Under the pieces are notes generated by a model. That model worked only from the letters and a program-made list of their open reading frames with translations, did no database searches and had not been told where the DNA came from. Positions 5,087 to 13,406 of a stretch of DNA of 27,360 nucleotides are shown one piece after another (the first letter of the stretch is position 1; each line of letters begins with the position of its first letter). The position numbers and the translations under genes are program-made. The DNA is from a virus (Duplodnaviria; Heunggongvirae; Uroviricota; Caudoviricetes): IMG/VR virus record IMGVR_UViG_2695420569_000030; one strand, written 5' to 3'.

Positions 5087-7497
5087 GTCATGCCGATATG
5101 AACAACTGCTGCGGCTTTAACGAGGCTGCTGCAGCATTCTCATGGAACAGCCCGAAAAAGGCCATTAACCCTTATCTGGACCCGGCGGAAGTTGCGCCGG
5201 TTTCTACGCTTTCAAACCTGATCACTCTGTACGCTGCCGATAACGAGCAGGAACAGTTGCGCCGCGAGGCACTGAGTGATCAGGTCTGGGAGCGTTATTT
5301 CTTTAATGAATCACGTGATCCTGTCCAGCGCGAAATGGAGCAGGATAAGCTCATTAGCCGGGCAAAGCTGGCGCATGAGCAGCAGCGTTTTAATTCAGAC
5401 ATGGTCATTCTGGCGGACGTCAACGCCCAGCCTTCCCATATCAGCAAGCCGCTGATGCAACGTATTGAATACTTCAGCAGCCTGGGCAAGCCAAAGGCTT
5501 ATTCCCGCTATTTACGTGAGACGATTAAGCCATGTCTGGAACGACTGGAGCATGTACGCGACAGTCAGCTATCTGCATCTTTTCGCTTTATGGCAAGCCA
5601 TGAAGGGCTGGACGGCCTGCTGATCCTGCCTGAAATGAGTCAGGATCAGGTGAAACGCCTGTCCACCCTGGTAGCTGCGCATATGAGTATGTGCCTTGAT
5701 GCAGCTTGTGGTGATTTGTATGCCACCGATGACGTTAAGCCAGAAGAAATCCGCAAGACATGGGAAAAGGTGGCAGCGGAAACCCTGCGTCTGGATGTCA
5801 TCCCACCTGCGTTTGAGCAACTCCGTCGGAAAAGAAACCGCCGTAAACCCGTGCCCTATGAACTCATTCCGGGTTCGTTGGCGCGTATGTTGTGTGCCGA
5901 CTGGTGGTATCGGAAATTATGGAAGATGCGTTGTGAATGGCGGGAAGAGCAGTTGCGTGCTGTCTGCCTGGTCAGCAAAAAAGCATCCCCCTATGTCAGC
6001 TATGAAGCCGTGATGCATAAACGTGAGCAGCGCCGTAAGTCGCTGGAGTTTTTCCGTTCTCATGAACTGGTGAACGAAGACGGCGACACGCTGGATATGG
6101 AAGATGTGGTAAACGCCAGCAGCAGCAACCCGGCGCATCGCCGCAATGAGATGATGGCCTGTGTTAAAGGTCTGGAGCTTATCGCGGAAATGCGCAGTGA
6201 CTGCGCCGTTTTCTACACTATCACCTGTCCGTCGCGTTTCCATTCCACGCTCAATAACGGCAGACCCAACCCGACCTGGACAAACTCGACGGTAAGACAA
6301 AGCAGCGACTATCTGGTCGGCATGTTTGCTGCATTTCGTAAGGCGATGCACAAAGCCGGATTGCGCTGGTATGGCGTGCGGGTGGCTGAGCCGCATCATG
6401 ACGGTACAGTTCACTGGCACCTGTTGTGTTTTATGCGCAAAAAAGACCGCCGCGCCATCACTGCATTACTGCGTAAGTTTGCCATCCGTGAAGACCGCGA
6501 GGAGCTGGGCAATAACACTGGGCCGCGCTTTAAGTCTGAGTTGATTAACCCGCGCAAAGGAACGCCGACAAGCTACATCGCGAAATATATCAGTAAGAAC
6601 ATTGACGGGCGTGGTCTGGCTGGCGAGATCAGCAAGGAAACGGGTAAATCTCTGCGTGATAACGCTGAATACGTTAATGTCTGGGCGTCTCTGCATCGTG
6701 TTCAGCAATTCCGCTTCTTTGGCATTCCGGGGCGTCAGGCTTACCGTGAACTGCGATTGCTGGCTGGTCAGGCGGCAAGGCAACAGGGTGACAAAAAAGC
6801 AGGTGCTCCGGTACTGGATAACCCGCGCCTTGATGCCATTCTGGCTGCTGCTGATGCTGGCTGTTTTGCCACCTACATTATGAAGCAGGGCGGCGTGTTG
6901 GTTCCCCGCAAATATCACTTGATCAGAACCGCTTATGAAATCAACGAAGAGCCGACAGCCTATGGCGATCACGGCATTCGTATTTATGGCATCTGGTCAC
7001 CCATTGCAGAGGGCAAGATCTGCACTCATGCAGTGAAGTGGAAAATGGTTCGTAAGGCCGTTGACGTTCAGGAGGCGGCAGCCGACCAGGGCGCTTGCGC
7101 CCCTTGGACTCGTGGCAATAACTGTCCCCTTGCTGAAAATTTGTACCAACAAGGGAAAGACAAATCAGCTGATGGAGATACCAGAACTGATATCACCCGT
7201 ATGGATGACAAGGAGTTGCACGATTACCTGCACAGTATGAGCAAAAAAGAGCGCCGGGAACTGGCAGCAAGGTTACGCCTGGTGAAACCGAAACGGCGTA
7301 AAGACTACAAACAGCGAATTACAGATCATCAGCGACAGCAGCTCGTGTATGAACTGAAGTCCAGGGGATTTGATGGCAGCGAGAAAGAGGTCGATTTACT
7401 CCTTCGCGGCGGCAGTATTCCGTCAGGAGCAGGCCTGCGTATCTTCTATCGGAACCAGCGTTTGCAGGAAGATGATAAGTGGCGGAACCTGTATTAA
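5083..7497 (+). CDS. A: Replication initiation endonuclease (P2 gpA-type rolling-circle initiator)
   Basis: 804 aa, the size class of P2 A. HUH-type metal-binding motif (HWHLLCF) and downstream tyrosines. Located after the early regulators, as in P2/186. Confidence 0.9.
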
Positions 7498-7589
7498 TTA
7501 CGCGGGTTAACAATTCGTGCTCTTAATAATACCAGGCATTTCTGGCTGATGAACGTAAAAAAACGTTTTACATCAGTAAGATTATTATA

Positions 7590-7609
7590 TACTGTAAATA
7601 TAAACAGTG
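7590..7609 (+). promoter_or_regulatory. LexA operator (SOS box) upstream of the tum-like operon
   Basis: TACTGTAAATATAAACAGTG is a CTG-N10-CAG motif with an AT-rich spacer, close to the LexA consensus, about 40 bp upstream of the ATG at 7650. A second degenerate box (GTG-N10-CAG) abuts it. Confidence 0.6.
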
Positions 7610-7649
7610 GTTATGTATACAGTATCGCTTTGGTGTCATAGGAGGAAAG

Positions 7650-7838
7650 ATGCAGGACTATTTTTTGGAGTCTTTGAAGCTCCAGCGCATTGATTTTTTT
7701 CTTAAGCTTGTAGCGGCTAGTGAGTGTAGTGATGAAGAGAAGGGGCTGGCTCTGCAGTGGGTTTCTGAATTGACTGATGAACTCATGGCAAAAATCAGAA
7801 CCCACGAATACAACCGCTCAATGGATGTCATCAGTTGA
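7650..7838 (+). CDS. Small protein, possible N-terminal part of a Tum-like antirepressor
   Basis: 62-aa ORF with strong RBS (GGAGGAAAG), directly downstream of the LexA box and upstream of the DinI-like ORF. Confidence 0.5.
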   Translation: MQDYFLESLKLQRIDFFLKLVAASECSDEEKGLALQWVSELTDELMAKIRTHEYNRSMDVIS

Positions 7839-7848
7839 GGTGACTTTT

Positions 7849-8082
7849 ATGCGCATTGAAATAATGATCGATAAAGAGCAGAAGATTAGCCAGTCTACCC
7901 TGGACGCCCTTGAATCCGAGCTTTACCGCAATCTGCGCCCCCTGTATCCCAAAACGGTAATTCGTATCCGCAAAGGTAGCTCTAACGGTGTGGAACTGAC
8001 CGGACTGCAACTGGATGAAGAAAGAAAACAAGTGATGAAAATTATGCAGAAAGTGTGGGAAGACGACAGCTGGCTGCATTAA
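7849..8082 (+). CDS. DinI-family protein
   Basis: 77 aa (MRIEIMIDK...DALESEL...VWEDDSWL) that aligns by eye along its whole length with E. coli DinI (MRIEVTIAK...DALAGEL...TWESADDW). RBS GAGGTG. Confidence 0.8.
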   Translation: MRIEIMIDKEQKISQSTLDALESELYRNLRPLYPKTVIRIRKGSSNGVELTGLQLDEERKQVMKIMQKVWEDDSWLH

Positions 8083-8193
8083 GAAACGTTGCCTCCAGGA
8101 GGATTCATTCTGATGGGGGCTAGTTTGGGCAACGAGTGAAACGAGGCGTAAGGTGGGCGGGCATTTTGATAAGTGATCGTCCGCTTTGTGCTA

Positions 8194-8213
8194 GAAGCGG
8201 TCGTTACCGCTTC
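8194..8213. terminator. Stem-loop between convergent genes (possible terminator)
   Basis: GAAGCGG-tcgtta-CCGCTTC, a perfect 7-bp stem. An upstream CCGCTT copy could form an alternative pairing. The U-tract is weak. Confidence 0.25.
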
Positions 8214-8226
8214 AGCACTTTGTTAA

Positions 8227-10086
8227 TTAGTGAGGGCTGGTTATTACGTAGTCGCTCTGGTCATCCTCTCCCAGCCTCTCAGGTATTAAATCGTTGAAGG
8301 AAATAGTATTACTCTTAGGTTTTTCTTCAATTGGAAGTTCAGCTACCCTTAATTTGAGCGGCATGGGGCAGACGATACCACTAAAAATACAGGTTCCTGT
8401 AGATAGCGTTGGAATCGACTCTTCAGTCAGTCGATCTATATATGATACTGATTTTTCAATTGCGTACAGATCATTCTGATTAATAAGGCGATGAATAAAA
8501 TAATTGTGTGCTTGGGATATGATTGTCGACGATATATCATTAGGGCGTTGACTGGAAATTGTGATAAAAACTCCAAATTTTCTCCCCTCCTTTATGATTT
8601 CCTCAAAAGTTTCCAGACGATAATCTCTCCAACTTTCCGTTTCCCGAAAAGAAGTATTAGACAAAATATTGTGGGCTTCATCTATAATGATGTGCAGTGT
8701 AGATTTCTCTGTAGACATTTTCTTCATATTGTAAGCCCACTTGGCTATCAAAAGAGGAAGCGTTTTTTTCATGGTTATATTAACCATATTTAGATTCACA
8801 ACCGTGAAATTATGTTCACCCCAAAAGTCAGACTGTCCGGAAGTATCAAATATTTTGGCTATATCTTTACGGTTAGCACTCATTCTATTTATAACTGGTG
8901 AAATATGTTCAGGGTTAGACTTGTTAGATAAATATTCCTGTATTAACTGTAAGTACATAAAGTCCAACAGTTCTTCAATCATATCAGTTTTAAATAAAAA
9001 ATTGCTTGCAAGACTGAATAGATAGGAGCGCTCAGTATCAGCTTCTGTATTGAAAATACTACCACCCCTCAATTTCCATTTATATGCAGTTGAATGATAC
9101 TCAAGATCAGATATAAGTTCTGGGTCATCTTTGAAAATTGGGCTAAGAAACTGATTTATAGTATCGCATTTGGGTTTGTCGCTACTAAAGAGATTTTGTC
9201 TGACTTTTTTCTTCAGGATATTGCGCATAAACTCAAGAGGATTATCAGCAGTCATCACTTTCTTGCGAAACTCAAGAACTCTCTTCAGGAAAGGTTTCTG
9301 TGTTTTGTCTGTTGCATCGGTTAGAACTGAGAGCATATCATGCTCAAGTAGAACCTCTCTGGGTAGAGGAAGTTTGTCACCATTTGCATGGTGCGTGTTG
9401 AGATTATAAACCGTCTTCTCGTCAGTAATACAGCGTGGGGCAGTATATTCTCCATTAAAGTCGAATAGAATAAATTTGCATCTTTCACTAAAGTGGTTGC
9501 CGAGAATATGTTTAACTTGGGCAATACCTGCTTTGTATAGCGCGGCTAGGGTATTTGACTTTCCGCTGCCTGTATTACCGAAAATGGCAATGTGGGAATT
9601 AATAAGACCATTGATTGGTAGTGCAATTTCAATATCTTCAAGATCTGTACGAGTAAACCTCATTACAGTTTCGTCTGCATTAGCTATCTGATGAACCGTT
9701 TGTATCATCTCTTCAGTTACCACGAAGACTTCATTGCCGATGAGAGGTAGTTCACGCGAACCACCAATGAAGCAACCAGTACGATCAATGTAACCCGTAA
9801 GAGTAGAGGTCAGGTATCGCCGATATCGCCAGGCATCACTGCCGCTCCCAGCGAGATGTTTTTCCTCAATGATTCGTTCCGCTTCAACCTTGCCGATCAG
9901 GCTCATGAAACCTTTTTTGATCTCAATGAAGCTACCCACTGATACATTTCTTAGAACTTTTCCCTGATAAAACAAGTCACTGAGATTTTTGTTTTTATCG
10001 ACCAAAATTGTCACAGCGCGTCCAGAAACCTCACAGACTTCGCCTATACGGAGCACCGCTTCCTCTTCAGTAAAATGCCTGCTCAT
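8227..10086 (-). CDS. HerA-like P-loop ATPase (partner of SIR2)
   Basis: Walker A GNTGSGKSNT and Walker B HIIIDEAH. Start taken at the ATG that forms an ATGA overlap with the SIR2 stop; the track ORF extends 7 codons further. Confidence 0.8.
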   Translation of the reverse strand: MSRHFTEEEAVLRIGEVCEVSGRAVTILVDKNKNLSDLFYQGKVLRNVSVGSFIEIKKGFMSLIGKVEAERIIEEKHLAGSGSDAWRYRRYLTSTLTGYIDRTGCFIGGSRELPLIGNEVFVVTEEMIQTVHQIANADETVMRFTRTDLEDIEIALPINGLINSHIAIFGNTGSGKSNTLAALYKAGIAQVKHILGNHFSERCKFILFDFNGEYTAPRCITDEKTVYNLNTHHANGDKLPLPREVLLEHDMLSVLTDATDKTQKPFLKRVLEFRKKVMTADNPLEFMRNILKKKVRQNLFSSDKPKCDTINQFLSPIFKDDPELISDLEYHSTAYKWKLRGGSIFNTEADTERSYLFSLASNFLFKTDMIEELLDFMYLQLIQEYLSNKSNPEHISPVINRMSANRKDIAKIFDTSGQSDFWGEHNFTVVNLNMVNITMKKTLPLLIAKWAYNMKKMSTEKSTLHIIIDEAHNILSNTSFRETESWRDYRLETFEEIIKEGRKFGVFITISSQRPNDISSTIISQAHNYFIHRLINQNDLYAIEKSVSYIDRLTEESIPTLSTGTCIFSGIVCPMPLKLRVAELPIEEKPKSNTISFNDLIPERLGEDDQSDYVITSPH

Positions 10087-11126
10087 CTCGAGCCTCCCAG
10101 ATAGCACGTGATAATGTTATTCATTACCGGAAAATCAACATTTCTTCCCGGCCGATAAATAATCTCTACGTTTGAGTAATCCCGAAATTTCTCCATAAAG
10201 CCGTTAACACTGGCCTCATCGAAAGCAAAGATCAGTAGCTTCAGGGTGGCGTTGCGCAGGGCTTTTTTAGTTATCGTTTCAATGTGCTCATCAGCAAACG
10301 AGAACCCAAAGACAATTAGTAAAGTTGCTTCTTTATCAAGCTCGTTGGAATAGGTTCTCAGTAAATCATAATAAACGTTCTGTAGTAGAGTCTCTTTAAA
10401 CTTCTCCTTACGTGGAAGAATAAGTGCATGAGCAAGTACCCATCCTTTCATTTCGGCTAGGGTGGGAAAGTCAAGCGGCTTAATATCTGCAATACGATAA
10501 ATGATTTTCCCTTTAGAATGCTGCCAAGAGAGCGAACCATGAAGTTTTATAAGGTTAACAGTAGGAAGCTCAACTTTATAATTATACAGATTTCCGGTTG
10601 CACTTACAGAATGATTAAAGCTACCCGCATCAAATTCCGCATCTCCCAAAATACTTGCTCTTCTATTGAATCCATCATTAAAAAGAATATTGTTATTACG
10701 TGTGGCAGCTTCTTCGATGAATAAATCATAATTAGTTGTAAAAACGTTAATACGCCTCGGAAGTAGGCCAGTTCGGCGGCGGGTCAGTATCTTTTCCAGT
10801 GAAGACATAAATGCATCATAATTTGCACGGGTACATTCCAAATCGGTGATCACCTGAGGTGCGAAGGGGGTGCCGTAGCCGCGCTTCAACATGCATTCAT
10901 GAGGTAGCCAAACATCTGACAAAAAGTCAGCTGCCATCCTTAAGTATTCATCTTCCTGTTCATCATTAATAAGCTGCTGAAGATCCGTTTCGATTGTCCC
11001 CAGTACTTTAATCGCTGGGAGGGATGCACCTGATCCGATGAGAAAGTTAATGTTAGCTGACTGAAATATCCGCTCTAAGTAGTCTCGGTCACTATCGTTA
11101 CCGTAGTATGCGCGCTTGACTGCCAT
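10083..11126 (-). CDS. SIR2-like domain protein (defence-type, predicted NADase)
   Basis: Motifs GSGAS, VFTTNYDLFIEEA and IKLHGS, characteristic of defence-associated SIR2 domains. ATG at 11126 with AGGA RBS; the track start at 11141 is a TTG. Confidence 0.75.
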   Translation of the reverse strand: MAVKRAYYGNDSDRDYLERIFQSANINFLIGSGASLPAIKVLGTIETDLQQLINDEQEDEYLRMAADFLSDVWLPHECMLKRGYGTPFAPQVITDLECTRANYDAFMSSLEKILTRRRTGLLPRRINVFTTNYDLFIEEAATRNNNILFNDGFNRRASILGDAEFDAGSFNHSVSATGNLYNYKVELPTVNLIKLHGSLSWQHSKGKIIYRIADIKPLDFPTLAEMKGWVLAHALILPRKEKFKETLLQNVYYDLLRTYSNELDKEATLLIVFGFSFADEHIETITKKALRNATLKLLIFAFDEASVNGFMEKFRDYSNVEIIYRPGRNVDFPVMNNIITCYLGGSR

Positions 11127-11550
11127 CTTATCCTTCCACAAAACATTGGATTAGTCTGTAATTTATTTAATCTTAACGCCGAGCTCAATACTTTAACATC
11201 ACTTCTTCTGGCGATTGCTATGAGCCCTTCTTGATAAAAAGTTCGATCGGGAAACTGATCCTTTATGCCACAAGTTTTCTAGCTATCCTCAAAAAATTGG
11301 TGTTAAAACTGTGCCAACAAAGTTGCAAGGTTCGCTTCTCGCTCACAGCGAACTTTCATCTTTGTAAACCCGTATGATTCGCTTTTCAGCAGTCATTCAG
11401 ATACGGATTTACGCTTCCCTTGGCAGCGCATGACTATGACGCATGAGATCGCATGATCGTTTGAGGATCGTTTTTGCTGAAGTCAGCCAGAACTGGCGTG
11501 CTTTTGCTTATGTCATGCAGGTGCATGAAAACCACTACATAAAGCGGGCA

Positions 11551-11569
11551 GGCGTGGCGGGGATACGAG
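11551..11569. other. Candidate cos (cohesive-end) site
   Basis: GGCGTGGCGGGGA followed by GCGCGCGCT resembles the 19-nt cohesive ends of P2/186 as I recall them (GGCG[A/T]GGCGGGGAAAGCA...). It lies in the intergenic region between the two cargo operons. Recalled from memory, not verified. Confidence 0.3.
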
Positions 11570-11721
11570 CGCGCGCTAAGTCATATAAGAGTTATATATT
11601 GATTTGATTGCTGGACATGCATACAGTATCGCTCTATCATCTAATAAATCTTAGAGTATTTGACAATGTTTGGATAAAATGGAACCTAACTTATTCATAA
11701 TCCGCTAAACAGGGATGTCAG

Positions 11722-12636
11722 ATGCCATACCAATTGGTAGAGCTTAGCCCCGTAGCTAACGATCTTGAACAGTTAGGAACCAAAGAGAAGTTTTGGTTCT
11801 ATTTCTCCGATGACACTGTAAATTTGCAGTTGTTTAAGTACTCTAGGCCAGGTACTGGCGAGCATTGGTCTGAAAAGTGTGCTGCTGAGTTATGTCATTT
11901 GCTTAACATTCCACATGCTAGCTATGATTTGGCGCGATACAATGGTCGATTCGGTGTGGTGACTCAGAATATCATTCCATCTGGTTTCCGGATGGTAATG
12001 GGAAATGAAGTGCTTCACAGTTCGACATTCGATTATCCTGGGTCTTTACAAGCCGGGGAAAAGCCGGTAAGGGTCAGAGAACACACTGTCACAAGGGTAT
12101 TGGGTTGTTTAGATAGGGAATCTATCAAGCCTCCTCCGAGTGTATATGATCTAACCGGGCTAAATGCAGCAGATGTATTTTGTGGATATTTGATGCTCGA
12201 TGCACTTGTGAGTAATCAAGATCGCCATCATGAAAATTGGGCGATCATGCTTAACAATGAAACTGGTGAGCAGTTTTTGTGTCCAACATACGATCATGCC
12301 GCTAGTTTAGGAAGGGAGATGTTAGATGATGAGCGTAACGAACGGCTTAATACTAAAGATAAAAATCGACAAATCCCATGTTTTGTAAGAAAAGCTCGCT
12401 CTGAGCTATTCAAAGCAAAAACTGATAAAAAGCCCTTGCTGACCGTTGAAGCATTTCAACATGCAGTTGAAGGGAGAGTTGCCGCTCGCGACCATTGGTT
12501 AGGTAAGTTGAGCGTTTTAACAGAAGATTCCATTACAGATGTGTTTAACCAAGTGCCTTCATCGTGTATATCCGACAGTGCACGTAGATTTGCAACGTTA
12601 ATGGTAATGGAAAATCGCAGAAGGTTACTAGAATGA
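11722..12636 (+). CDS. HipA-family serine/threonine kinase (short, HipT-like core)
   Basis: Catalytic-loop motif SNQDRHHENW (HipA D-x-H-x-x-N), downstream CPTYDHA (HipA activation-region PFYD) and a Gly-rich-loop-like GTKEKF. 304 aa, shorter than canonical HipA. Confidence 0.75.
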   Translation: MPYQLVELSPVANDLEQLGTKEKFWFYFSDDTVNLQLFKYSRPGTGEHWSEKCAAELCHLLNIPHASYDLARYNGRFGVVTQNIIPSGFRMVMGNEVLHSSTFDYPGSLQAGEKPVRVREHTVTRVLGCLDRESIKPPPSVYDLTGLNAADVFCGYLMLDALVSNQDRHHENWAIMLNNETGEQFLCPTYDHAASLGREMLDDERNERLNTKDKNRQIPCFVRKARSELFKAKTDKKPLLTVEAFQHAVEGRVAARDHWLGKLSVLTEDSITDVFNQVPSSCISDSARRFATLMVMENRRRLLE

Positions 12637-13373
12637 CTAATACAAACTCCGTTTACGTCGCATGGCAGGCACCAGATACCAGAGACTGGCATGTTGTTGG
12701 TAACTTGCAAGAGCGCAAATCGGGGTATGTTTTCAGGTATACCAAAGGTGCTCTCAAATCTACTAAATTTACAAAGTTTAGCGGCATGAGTGATGTTCGT
12801 GAAACTTATGTTTCGGAAGAATTGTTTCCTCTTTTTAAAAATCGCCTTTTATCACCGAGACGTCCAGAGTATCCGAGTTTCATTAAATGGCTTGGATTTG
12901 AAGAAGATAAGGTAAATCCTATCGATATTCTTGCTCGCTCGGGAGGCTTACGAAGCACTGATCAGCTGCAGATTTTCAAAAAAATTGATGTTGATTCTGA
13001 TGGTAACTTTGAGCATTTTTTCTTCTTACATGGACTTGGTTACTTAAATAGCTTAGCTAATGCTCGTGTATCTGAATTGAAACCGGGGCAAATTTTGCGT
13101 CTTTGCTTGGATCTTCAAAATGAATACGATGGGGATGCTGTTGTCGTTCGTGCAGATAAACCAGCTGAAATCGTTGGTTACTGCCCTAGGTATTTAAGTA
13201 ATGATATCAAGAAGATGTTATTGGATGATCCAAAATCAATCACTTTAACGGTCGAAAAGATTAGCGATGATGCTCCTCATAACTATCGGTTATTATGTAA
13301 ATTATCAGGAGTACTAAGCCAAGCCTGTCAATCGACGCTGATTCCTCAGGATGAGTTTGAACCTATTGAGTAA
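12633..13373 (+). CDS. HipA-N-terminal-like (HipS-like) domain fused to a HIRAN-like domain
   Basis: Start overlaps the kinase stop (ATGA). The N-terminal region (W...VGNL...F.Y, then LFPLFKNRLLSPRRP...IDILARSGGLRS) parallels the HipA N-subdomain 1. The C-terminal region (LHGLGY...LRLCLDLQNEYDGDAVVVRA...IVGYCPRYLS) matches the HIRAN signature. Confidence 0.6.
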   Translation: MTNTNSVYVAWQAPDTRDWHVVGNLQERKSGYVFRYTKGALKSTKFTKFSGMSDVRETYVSEELFPLFKNRLLSPRRPEYPSFIKWLGFEEDKVNPIDILARSGGLRSTDQLQIFKKIDVDSDGNFEHFFFLHGLGYLNSLANARVSELKPGQILRLCLDLQNEYDGDAVVVRADKPAEIVGYCPRYLSNDIKKMLLDDPKSITLTVEKISDDAPHNYRLLCKLSGVLSQACQSTLIPQDEFEPIE

Positions 13374-13379
13374 ATGAAG

Positions 13380-13406
13380 AAAAGCCACCAAACGGTGGCT
13401 TTTCTT
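13380..13406. terminator. Bidirectional rho-independent terminator
   Basis: AAAAGCCACC-aaac-GGTGGCTTTT, a perfect GC-rich stem with an A-tract on one side and a T-tract on the other, between the convergent stops at 13373 and 13408. Confidence 0.55.

Follow-up and report, generated by a model that had tools for sequence, protein, structure and literature searches.

Positions 11722 to 13373 of the window (the whole 27,360-nt stretch of DNA analysed, from a Caudoviricetes virus, IMG/VR record IMGVR_UViG_2695420569_000030) hold two genes on the + strand, a kinase gene and, directly downstream of it, the gene of a two-domain partner protein. An ORF check of the window sequence found both ORFs, of 304 and 246 aa, exactly as a preliminary description of the locus had given them, along with the ATGA overlap that joins them. 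The features of the locus are:

11612..11640, + strand: candidate sigma-70 promoter TGGACA-17-TATCAT, from a consensus scan, ~80 nt upstream of the kinase ATG
11711-11715, + strand: AGGGA ribosome-binding site of the kinase gene, read from the sequence
11722..12636, + strand: hipI-type kinase gene, an ORF of 304 aa (PADLOC PDC-M03A, 2e-122)
11773..11790, + strand: Gly-rich (P-loop-like) motif L18-G-T-K-E-K23, near the N terminus of the kinase and invariant in 26 homologues
12211..12240, + strand: catalytic loop S164-N-Q-D167-R-H-H-E-N172-W173, invariant in the family and aligning to the CtkA catalytic loop
12280..12306, + strand: Mg-binding motif C187-P-T-Y-D191-H-A-A-S195, the DFG equivalent
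12633..12636, + strand: ATGA start/stop overlap (hipN ATG 12633-12635, kinase TGA 12634-12636)
12633..13373, + strand: hipN-type partner gene, an ORF of 246 aa encoding two domains (PADLOC PDC-M03B, 3.4e-93)
12633..12986, + strand: HipS-like domain of HipN, ~aa 1-118
13011..13316, + strand: HIRAN domain of HipN, aa 127-228
13119-13139, + strand: HIRAN motif N163-x-Y165-D166-x-x-A169, with N163, D166 and A169 invariant in homologues

The ATGA overlap, together with a GAAGG located 8 nt 5′ of the hipN ATG, implies that translation of hipN is coupled to that of the kinase gene. TGGACA-17-TATCAT is the sole + strand sigma-70 candidate that the scan returned in the region, as a match to the consensus only, and the E. 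coli version of the pair, 1.65 kb in size, appears to have this promoter-like site to itself. As had been proposed from the sequence, a HipB-like HTH gene is absent: the PGAP annotation is empty between the SIR2 gene and the kinase gene, and two small ORFs upstream of the kinase gene, checked as hidden antitoxin or HTH genes, gave zero matches. Operator-like palindromic repeats were not found in the promoter region upstream of the kinase gene either. This region holds a single weak 9-nt inverted repeat, which leaves HipB-style autoregulation unsupported.

The pair sits in the cos-proximal gpA–gpQ cargo hotspot of a 186/Fels-2-type P2-family prophage, within a low-GC island and adjoining a SIR2–HerA defence system detected by PADLOC. 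The P2 gpA–gpQ hotspot is rich in validated defence systems. With up to 3 mismatches allowed, the P2 cos sequence had no match; reading of the region by eye identified a diverged cos-like 19-mer, and the pair lies beside this cos-like block. Close by, this phage also has a gene for a DinI-like SOS modulator.

The motifs on which a HipA-type kinase had been proposed are all present in the first protein: LGTKEKF (aa 18-24), SNQDRHHENW and CPTYDHA. We take its LGTKEK loop to be the equivalent of the ‘AGAQEK’ loop of HipA. Against Pfam HipA_C (PF07804) the kinase scored 20.7 bits (E = 3.6e-4), under the cut-off of 30.5; HipA_C was matched by 25 of the 26 kinase homologues at E<0.01 (best 3.4e-8), and precomputed PF07804 assignments are present on many of its database homologues. 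NCBIfam holds a model for neither the kinase nor HipN. In a sequence-profile search of solved structures with the kinase, CtkA was the only significant match (E = 7.8e-4), and single-sequence searches of solved structures with either protein of the pair, or with the HIRAN region by itself, returned nothing meaningful. Foldseek comparison of an AF2 model of the kinase (pLDDT 83.7, pTM 0.85) matched CtkA (1.6e-10, TM 0.66-0.76), HipA (3.4e-6), Shewanella HipA (1.3e-5) and Legionella HipT (~2e-5), all with a probability of 1.00. Weak matches, at TM 0.27-0.42, were to PI3K, Vps34, ATM, ATR and mTOR. An hhalign alignment of the kinase profile to E. coli HipA, which we used for residue correspondence and not as evidence of homology (42 columns, probability 1.25%), equates D167 with D309, N172 with N314 and D191 with D332. 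D167, N172 and D191 are invariant in all 26 homologues, as is the whole run Y190, D191, H192, A193, A194 and S195. An inactive pseudokinase was considered and rejected, as every catalytic motif is invariant across phyla. We conclude, from the modelled fold and these residues, that the protein is almost certainly a core HipA-superfamily Ser/Thr kinase without the HipA N-subdomain-1 and with its catalytic motifs intact.

The partner, HipN (identical protein cluster P0121), had been described as resembling the HipA N-terminal subdomain in its N-terminal half and a HIRAN domain in its C-terminal half, with the signatures NEYDGDAVVV and VGYCPRYL, both of which we found. Its match to Pfam HIRAN (PF08797) reached 51.3 bits (1.1e-13), over the cut-off of 24.7, whereas that to Couple_hipA (E = 0.018, 16 bits) stayed under the cut-off of 22.5. 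Of the profile searches that the preliminary description had proposed as a check, the one for HIRAN was therefore positive, whereas those for HipA_C and Couple_hipA fell short. Because the latter two scores lie under the Pfam thresholds, evidence at the level of structure was required for both assignments, and it supports them. A profile search of solved structures with HipN was without meaningful match; comparison of predicted models (HipN AF2 model: pLDDT 88.5, pTM 0.83) gave structure-level matches to the HipS complexes PDB 7ab3, 7vkb and 8ezr. The modelled structure confirms a HipS-like fold for the N-terminal half of HipN and a HIRAN domain for its C-terminal half. For comparison we used the HIRAN domains of HLTF/Rad5 and of bacterial lp_0118 (PDB 4s0n, 4xzg, 6l8o and 3k2y), and the HipN HIRAN motif aligns to NQYDDNA of lp_0118. 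In HLTF/Rad5 the HIRAN domain is joined to an SNF2 helicase/RING, whereas in HipN it is joined to a HipS-like domain predicted to bind the kinase. The HIRAN domains known so far bind ssDNA and DNA ends independently of sequence, most bacterial members lack the HLTF Phe142 that duplex binding requires, an absence suggestive of ssDNA ends, and in eukaryotes HIRAN proteins work at stalled forks (PMC8262856).

This architecture has been described before. PADLOC assigned PDC-M03A over residues 2–304 of the kinase and PDC-M03B over residues 1–244 of HipN, in adjacent genes, and the pair matched the PHROGs phrog_8728 (1.2e-183) and phrog_8026 (2.2e-136). The PADLOC, PHROGs and HIRAN matches lie far beyond chance. 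Gerdes, Baerentsen & Brodersen (mBio 2021; PMC8262856) named the architecture hipIN, with a kinase HipI and a putative antitoxin HipN, classed it as a TA-like module and hypothesized that the sensing of DNA ends activates the kinase and brings about abortive infection. Theirs is the survey of HIRAN-associated HipA homologues alluded to in the preliminary description, whose interpretation held wherever it could be checked. HipI was defined there as a short core kinase of 279-321 aa, without N-subdomain-1 and with a Gly-rich loop near the N terminus (PMC8262856). The present kinase has 304 aa and carries the loop at residues 18-23, the pair is bicistronic with the kinase first and without an HTH antitoxin, and its spread over Proteobacteria and Cyanobacteria matches the fourth HipI subclade described for main clade XI. 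The two are alike throughout, with no architectural difference, and we identify the pair as a hipIN-type (PDC-M03) module, in family and in architecture, with very high confidence. PDC-M03 itself is cassette CAS_00033, one of 145 PADLOC candidate systems, and was predicted (Payne et al. 2024 preprint) from the embedding of homologues within BREX, DISARM or type I RM systems. It is also the ‘HIRAN-kinase’ of Rousset et al. 2022 (Table S6), whose Table S5A lists both proteins of the pair, WP_001146828 and WP_000185757. The prediction table of DefensePredictor 2026 includes the HIRAN partner, WP_000185757, as a predicted defence gene. The literature and PADLOC thus already contain the family, its architecture, both of the proteins themselves and the hypothesis. 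Brenes & Laub 2025 aside, no report in the literature searched put hipIN, HipL or PDC-M03 to experiment, in agreement with the preliminary description, which knew of none.

We surveyed the linkage of the two genes at 80 loci, 79 of them testable, from many phyla (Gammaproteobacteria, Cyanobacteria, Acidobacteriota, Planctomycetota, Desulfobacterota, Clostridia and others). HipN lies directly downstream of the kinase on the same strand at every testable locus (79/79), and in most cases it overlaps the kinase gene or follows it by ≤18 nt. Kinase-first order is therefore the family norm; it is opposite to hipS–hipT, as had been remarked, but it is not the oddity it was taken for. A third conserved gene, for example a diDNase-like component, was absent across the surveyed loci; in Actinobacteria, a diDNase has been associated with HipA/HIRAN operons (PMC11706625). 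The only neighbours held in common were housekeeping genes among related Nostocales, in which the pair occupies a syntenic chromosomal site amid such genes and not an obvious island. Chromosomes and other elements without a P2 context commonly carry the pair as well, and in a Vibrio PM2-like prophage it stands beside an integrase. An interrupted kinase with an intact HipN occurred at four loci, three of them metagenome bins, and the reverse at none, an asymmetry that is not statistically significant. These results show that the two genes form an autonomous unit, one that is strictly conserved and is carried on very different mobile elements. The linkage survey, the structure-level support for both HipN domains and the position of the pair relative to the cos-like block are the new observations of this study.

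In HipBST (E. coli O127; Legionella HipS–HipT) the genes run in the order hipB–hipS–hipT and HipS stands alone at ~100 aa, whereas the present pair has the kinase first, no HipB and a HIRAN domain C-terminal to its HipS-like domain. Identity as a HipBST variant was rejected on these three grounds. HipS inhibits the kinase in the solved HipS complexes, those of HipBST and of Legionella HipS–HipT, which to our knowledge are the only ones. Compared with HipT, the present kinase is nearer to CtkA by both sequence and fold. It has no Ser at the HipT-equivalent positions before the loop Gly, for which we assume the HipT numbering S57/S59, and has an invariant T20 inside the loop. The closest solved structure, CtkA (Helicobacter pylori JHP0940, PDB 3akj), is like the kinase a compact protein of ~300 aa with no N-subdomain; unlike it, CtkA is a stand-alone proinflammatory kinase without a HipS/HIRAN partner, and identity between the two is only 15-17%. 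HipA phosphorylates GltX and HipT phosphorylates TrpS. Since the closest solved relative is CtkA and not HipA or HipT, an analogy to these toxins that would make tRNA synthetases the substrates is weak.

Brenes & Laub reportedly carried out, in 2025, the E. coli prophage defence screen that is cited for HipAD/DS-6. HipAD/DS-6 resembles the present pair in having two genes, a small HipA-family kinase, no HipB and a partner predicted to bind the kinase as well as DNA. However, this partner is a DUF3037/DUF1829 protein unrelated to HipS–HIRAN, and its PADLOC family (PDC-M66) is other than PDC-M03. It is a validated anti-phage system in which protection requires the kinase catalytic residue (PMC13092281), so HipA-type kinases can be defence effectors. 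A distant relative, pFR108 ‘Exonuclease + HipA’ (Rousset et al. 2022), comes from the same P2 gpA–gpQ hotspot and differs in being exonuclease-paired and fused: its protein 2 matches both the hipI profile (2.5e-10) and the profile of the HipN N-domain (1e-6), with a HipS-like segment after the kinase core. It is found only in the tested-but-not-validated table of that study, in which a panel of 8 phages was used and expression was from the native promoter. HipL combines kinase, HipS-like and HIRAN domains in a natural single chain (PMC8262856), that is, the same three domains as the present pair but in one polypeptide. Such natural fusions, the 79/79 adjacency and the absence of a conserved third gene argue that the kinase and HipN are functionally linked.

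A role in defence is probable, given the P2 hotspot, the SIR2–HerA neighbour, the low-GC island, the BREX/DISARM/RM embedding of homologues, the DefensePredictor score and the HipAD/DS-6 precedent. On balance, we lean towards reading the locus as a hipIN cargo module in which HipN restrains the kinase and DNA ends trigger abortive infection; we count against this reading that pFR108 was not validated and that the Nostocales pair lies among housekeeping genes. The specific mechanism, release by DNA ends of a HipN-restrained kinase, is a tentative proposal with an even chance of being right, or somewhat less. In the lysogen, HipI and HipN would form a complex in which the HipS-like domain, at the position of HipS on HipT or of N-subdomain-1 in HipA, would keep the kinase off. 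This restraint would be lifted once the HIRAN domain meets free DNA 3′-OH ends or ssDNA, possible sources of which are incoming linear phage genomes, rolling-circle or recombination intermediates and chromosome breakdown in infection. The freed kinase might then phosphorylate an essential component of translation, by analogy an aminoacyl-tRNA synthetase, so that the infected cell would arrest growth and the competing phage would fail (abortive infection or superinfection exclusion). We infer in this scheme that the kinase would be toxic, that HipN would neutralize it and that the pair would protect against phage.

HipN might instead be an activating or targeting subunit and not an antitoxin, giving a holo-kinase activated by DNA 3′ ends. 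The kinase alone, which lacks N-subdomain-1, would then be incomplete, the HipS-like domain would complete it in the way that the corresponding domain does in HipA, and the HIRAN domain would recruit the holoenzyme to 3′ ends or switch it on there allosterically. Such a holo-kinase would be a minimal prokaryotic analogue of the PI3K-like Ku/DNA-PKcs and MRN/ATM assemblies, and its targets may be phage or host proteins associated with DNA, not the translation machinery or a tRNA synthetase. The likeness of the HipS-like domain is both to HipS, which is inhibitory, and to the integral N-subdomain of active HipA. HipN is predicted as a single compact two-domain unit (pTM 0.83), a switch in conformation fits the one-chain HipL-type proteins more readily than a labile antitoxin does, and the locus has neither a DNA-binding autoregulator nor an operator-like repeat. 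The HipA fold is PI3/4-kinase-like, in line with the weak Foldseek matches to PI3K, Vps34, ATM, ATR and mTOR, and the nearest solved relative is CtkA, not a synthetase-targeting Hip toxin. However, likeness at TM 0.27-0.42 reflects a shared kinase fold only, HipS is inhibitory in HipBST and in the Legionella HipS–HipT complexes, and the decay of the kinase alone at four loci that kept HipN leans towards a toxic kinase. We regard an activating HipN as unlikely.

A conventional type II TA or addiction module that stabilizes the prophage or promotes persistence is a little less likely again. HipA relatives are classical TA toxins, and a bicistronic, translationally coupled pair on a mobile element would suit such a module, as would the decay asymmetry of four loci against none and the TA-like classification by Gerdes et al. 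(PMC8262856). The HIRAN domain would here replace HipB in promoter autoregulation, and the kinase would be freed by antitoxin degradation and not by DNA ends. Against this, known HIRAN domains bind ends and ssDNA without sequence specificity, the promoter region is without a palindromic operator-like repeat, and the toxin-first order holds at 79/79 testable loci. The single chain of HipL is incompatible with differential proteolysis of a separate antitoxin, and the hotspot, the RM/BREX embedding and the DefensePredictor score favour defence. We consider it very improbable that the pair benefits the phage without excluding others, with HIRAN sensing host DNA damage or fork collapse and phosphorylation modulating host physiology, prophage induction or DNA-repair proteins, since, although eukaryotic HIRAN proteins work at stalled forks, a DinI-like SOS modulator is close by and the pair adjoins the cos-like block, the pair is common outside the P2 context, including the syntenic chromosomal Nostocales site, its homologues lie inside RM/BREX systems and it has no link to induction genes.

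The case for DNA-end-triggered defence by hipIN was made in print in 2021, and the present locus adds one more clean, testable instance and not a discovery. The E. coli pair is an easy experimental entry point because it is small, seems to carry a promoter-like site of its own and resides in a well-studied phage hotspot. If the hypothesis of a restrained kinase released by DNA ends is true, hipIN would place a protein kinase in defence under the direct control of a DNA-end sensor, a logic unlike that of the nuclease-, NADase- and nucleotide-signal-based systems that dominate the field. The HIRAN domain would then have a definite part in the immunity of bacteria, echoed in evolution by its presence in the fork-repair proteins of eukaryotes.

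The kinase and HipN genes overlap in an ATGA, with the hipN ATG on the kinase TGA and a Shine-Dalgarno-like GAAGG element 8 nt upstream. An AGGGA ribosome-binding site lies upstream of the kinase gene, and the convergent portal gene ends 34 nt past the hipN stop. Both ORFs agree in position and length with the preliminary description, and every motif that it quoted was found in them.

Features of the pair and its surroundings
7777-8082, + strand: DinI-like ORF (Pfam DinI, 1.3e-22)
8227-10107, - strand: HerA of SIR2-HerA (PADLOC, 6.7e-267)
10083-11141, - strand: SIR2 of SIR2-HerA (PADLOC, 6.3e-211)
11551-11569, inside the block 11425-11584: cos-like 19-mer, GGCGTGGCGGGGATACGAG
11612-11640, + strand: candidate sigma-70-like site TGGACA-17-TATCAT, by consensus match only, the sole one before the kinase gene
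11722-12636, + strand: kinase ORF (hipI-type), 304 aa
12633-13373, + strand: partner ORF (hipN-type), 246 aa

Searches with the profiles proposed in the preliminary description gave a divided result: the HIRAN domain of HipN matched Pfam PF08797 (1.1e-13; 51.3 bits, cut-off 24.7), whereas the kinase against HipA_C (20.7 bits, cut-off 30.5) and HipN against Couple_hipA (16 bits, cut-off 22.5) stayed below threshold, a gap filled by family-level and structural evidence. HIRAN is the only domain of the pair that is secure from sequence profiles alone. No NCBIfam model matched the kinase or HipN, and single-sequence searches of PDB sequences with the two proteins gave no meaningful match. At the family level, 25 of 26 kinase homologues matched HipA_C, and the kinase-family profile recovered the HipA-fold kinase CtkA (E = 7.8e-4). 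The kinase structure modelled by AlphaFold (pLDDT 83.7, pTM 0.85) matched CtkA best (1.6e-10, TM 0.66–0.76), followed by E. coli and Shewanella HipA and then Legionella HipT. The nearest solved kinase is CtkA, an assignment contributed by the present analysis, and the model predicts an intact HipA fold. D167, N172 and D191 correspond to HipA D309, N314 and D332 in a short, statistically weak alignment of the catalytic segment; 26 homologues, with identities down to 56%, all keep the three residues and the LGTKEK loop unchanged. Residues 100-119 (STFDYPGSLQAGEKPVRVRE), the sole low-confidence part of the model (pLDDT below 50), form a variable, indel-rich loop flanked by conserved blocks, which may bind partner or substrate.

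The HIRAN motif N-x-Y-D-x-x-A of HipN is conserved among homologues, with N163, D166 and A169 invariant, and aligns to its counterpart in the lp_0118 structure. HipN is predicted to combine a HipT-neutralising fold with a DNA-end-binding fold, and the present analysis adds model-based, structure-level support for both domains. The preliminary description is thus upheld in its observation of the pair, through the ORFs, motifs, kinase model and HIRAN match, and in its reading as a kinase with a HipS-like/HIRAN partner; the toxin release by DNA ends that it envisaged may occur.

Annotation shows the window to be a 186/Fels-2-type prophage of the P2 family, with the order integrase, CI, CII, Fil, Dam, replication endonuclease A, DinI-like, cargo, portal Q, terminase P and late genes. 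The cargo (about 8000-13400) has a GC content of 36–43% versus 53–60% in phage core genes, consistent with horizontal acquisition; being AT-rich, it could be a target of H-NS. It occupies the cos-proximal gpA–gpQ hotspot that Rousset et al. (2022) described. The DinI-like ORF, just 3′ of the replication endonuclease gene, is the conserved left border. The complete SIR2-HerA defence pair (8227-11141, - strand) shares the hotspot with the + strand kinase/HIRAN pair, so two independent defence cassettes are stacked in one island. A roughly 160-bp block (11425-11584) lies between them, separating two cargo slots; its conservation extends to over 1,200 E. coli genomes and to P2-like phages of Klebsiella, Salmonella, Erwinia and Yersinia. 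The 19-mer in this block resembles the P2/186 cohesive-end sequence, and we take it to be a candidate cos. Fels-2 has a matching layout, but an unrelated 565-aa gene, STM2723.1, fills the Q-proximal slot. Placement of the module in that slot, beside the cos-like block, is added by the present analysis; 21 of 5,426 complete E. coli genomes carry the module in full.

At 90% identity, homologue searches returned 955 clusters for the kinase and 535 for the partner; the HipN profile found 1,614 clusters at 50% identity (312 with E ≤ 1e-30), nearly all stand-alone proteins some 250 aa long. We surveyed 80 genome loci from Gammaproteobacteria, Cyanobacteria, Acidobacteriota, Planctomycetota, Desulfobacterota, Clostridia, Myxococcota and others. 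In 79 of them the kinase is followed by a co-directional HipN-like ORF, the remaining locus stopping at a contig edge, and the genes usually overlap or lie within 18 nt. Both HipN domains were detected wherever the contig permits, except at one Myxococcota locus. No third conserved gene was found around the pair in these loci; the module is therefore autonomous, and kinase-first order is the family rule. This 79-of-79 linkage among testable loci, without a third gene, is new here. In four loci (L020, 1367-2377; L021, L043 and L059, about 5900-6950) the kinase is broken by an in-frame stop or frameshift upstream of a full-length HipN, versus none with the reverse decay, as would be predicted for a dangerous kinase with a neutraliser, although four versus none is not significant and three of the four are metagenome bins.

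The Myxococcota exception, from Paraliomyxa miuraensis, carries a gene 3′ of the kinase (L069, about 6870-7658) with a HipS-like domain (1.7e-18) and no HIRAN detectable with the profile used, possibly a HipJS-like or domain-swapped variant. Several cyanobacterial loci have a gap of about 120 nt and no overlap. In Nostocales (L048-L081; Nostoc, Calothrix and relatives) the genes around the pair are syntenic and look like housekeeping genes (sugar kinase, glycosyltransferase, others), with no obvious mobile element or defence island.

A pair of 37% identity, annotated HipA-like_C and HIRAN (PQ189286.1, 6935-8649), adjoins the integrase of a 14.6-kb PM2-like (Vinavirales) prophage of Vibrio cyclitrophicus, one kind of element represented four times in the phage collection; this places the module in an entirely different realm of viruses as well. 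It also occurs on a few actinobacterial and Nostoc plasmids, so its carriers include mobile elements unrelated to one another.

The family, its architecture, the hypothesis and even the accession numbers of these proteins have been catalogued before. Gerdes, Baerentsen and Brodersen (mBio 2021; PMC8262856) defined hipIN as a bicistronic module of a HipI kinase and HipN (a HipS-like domain joined to HIRAN), alongside single-chain HipL, and proposed that HIRAN senses DNA ends from invading phages or from intermediates of replication, activating the kinase for abortive infection. Table S5A of Rousset et al. (2022) includes WP_001146828 and WP_000185757, the proteins annotated at an E. coli locus of 99.9% identity, among P2-hotspot arrangements. 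In that table the identical HipN, WP_000185757, recurs at further P2 hotspots of E. coli with other neighbours, such as DarT + Macro (DarTG), and with different upstream 'hypothetical' partners, a sign that cargo is reshuffled in modules around the cos block; another E. coli hipIN variant (WP_021523856 + WP_021563624) adjoins a DUF5051 gene. Payne et al. (2024) listed the cassette as PDC-M03 (684 RefSeq occurrences), one of 145 PDCs, all predicted candidates, on the basis of embedding inside RM, BREX or DISARM loci, and DefensePredictor (Science 2026) predicted WP_000185757.1 as a novel defence gene. No experimental work on hipIN itself was found in the literature covered by our search. DS-6/HipAD, cloned by DefensePredictor, is a different HipA-type pair (kinase plus DUF3037/DUF1829) whose defence depends on the kinase catalytic residue. 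The pFR108 'Exonuclease + HipA' clone of Rousset et al., from a P2 hotspot, is a distant fused relative in whose second protein a HipS-like segment comes after a kinase core; it appears only in their table of tested, not validated systems.

Linkage of the two genes is obligatory, their translation is predicted to be coupled, natural fusions of their domains exist, and the pair resides in defence hotspots. A defence role is probable. For the specific switch, we put the chances slightly short of even: the HipS-like domain would bind HipI and keep it inactive, HIRAN would meet 3′-OH ends or ssDNA during infection and release or activate the kinase, and phosphorylation of an essential target would arrest the cell. 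The main alternative, that HipN activates or targets the kinase, is unlikely but draws on the HipS-like domain being integral to active HipA, and on HipL, in which the three domains split here over two genes share one chain, a better fit to a conformational switch than to a labile antitoxin. Those fusions also count against a classical addiction module autoregulated through HIRAN, which we consider improbable: no operator-like repeat was found upstream, and known HIRAN domains bind DNA ends non-specifically. A DNA-damage sensor benefiting the phage, though possible, is unsupported and very improbable. The pair will not surprise a specialist, but it is compact and a good candidate for experiment.
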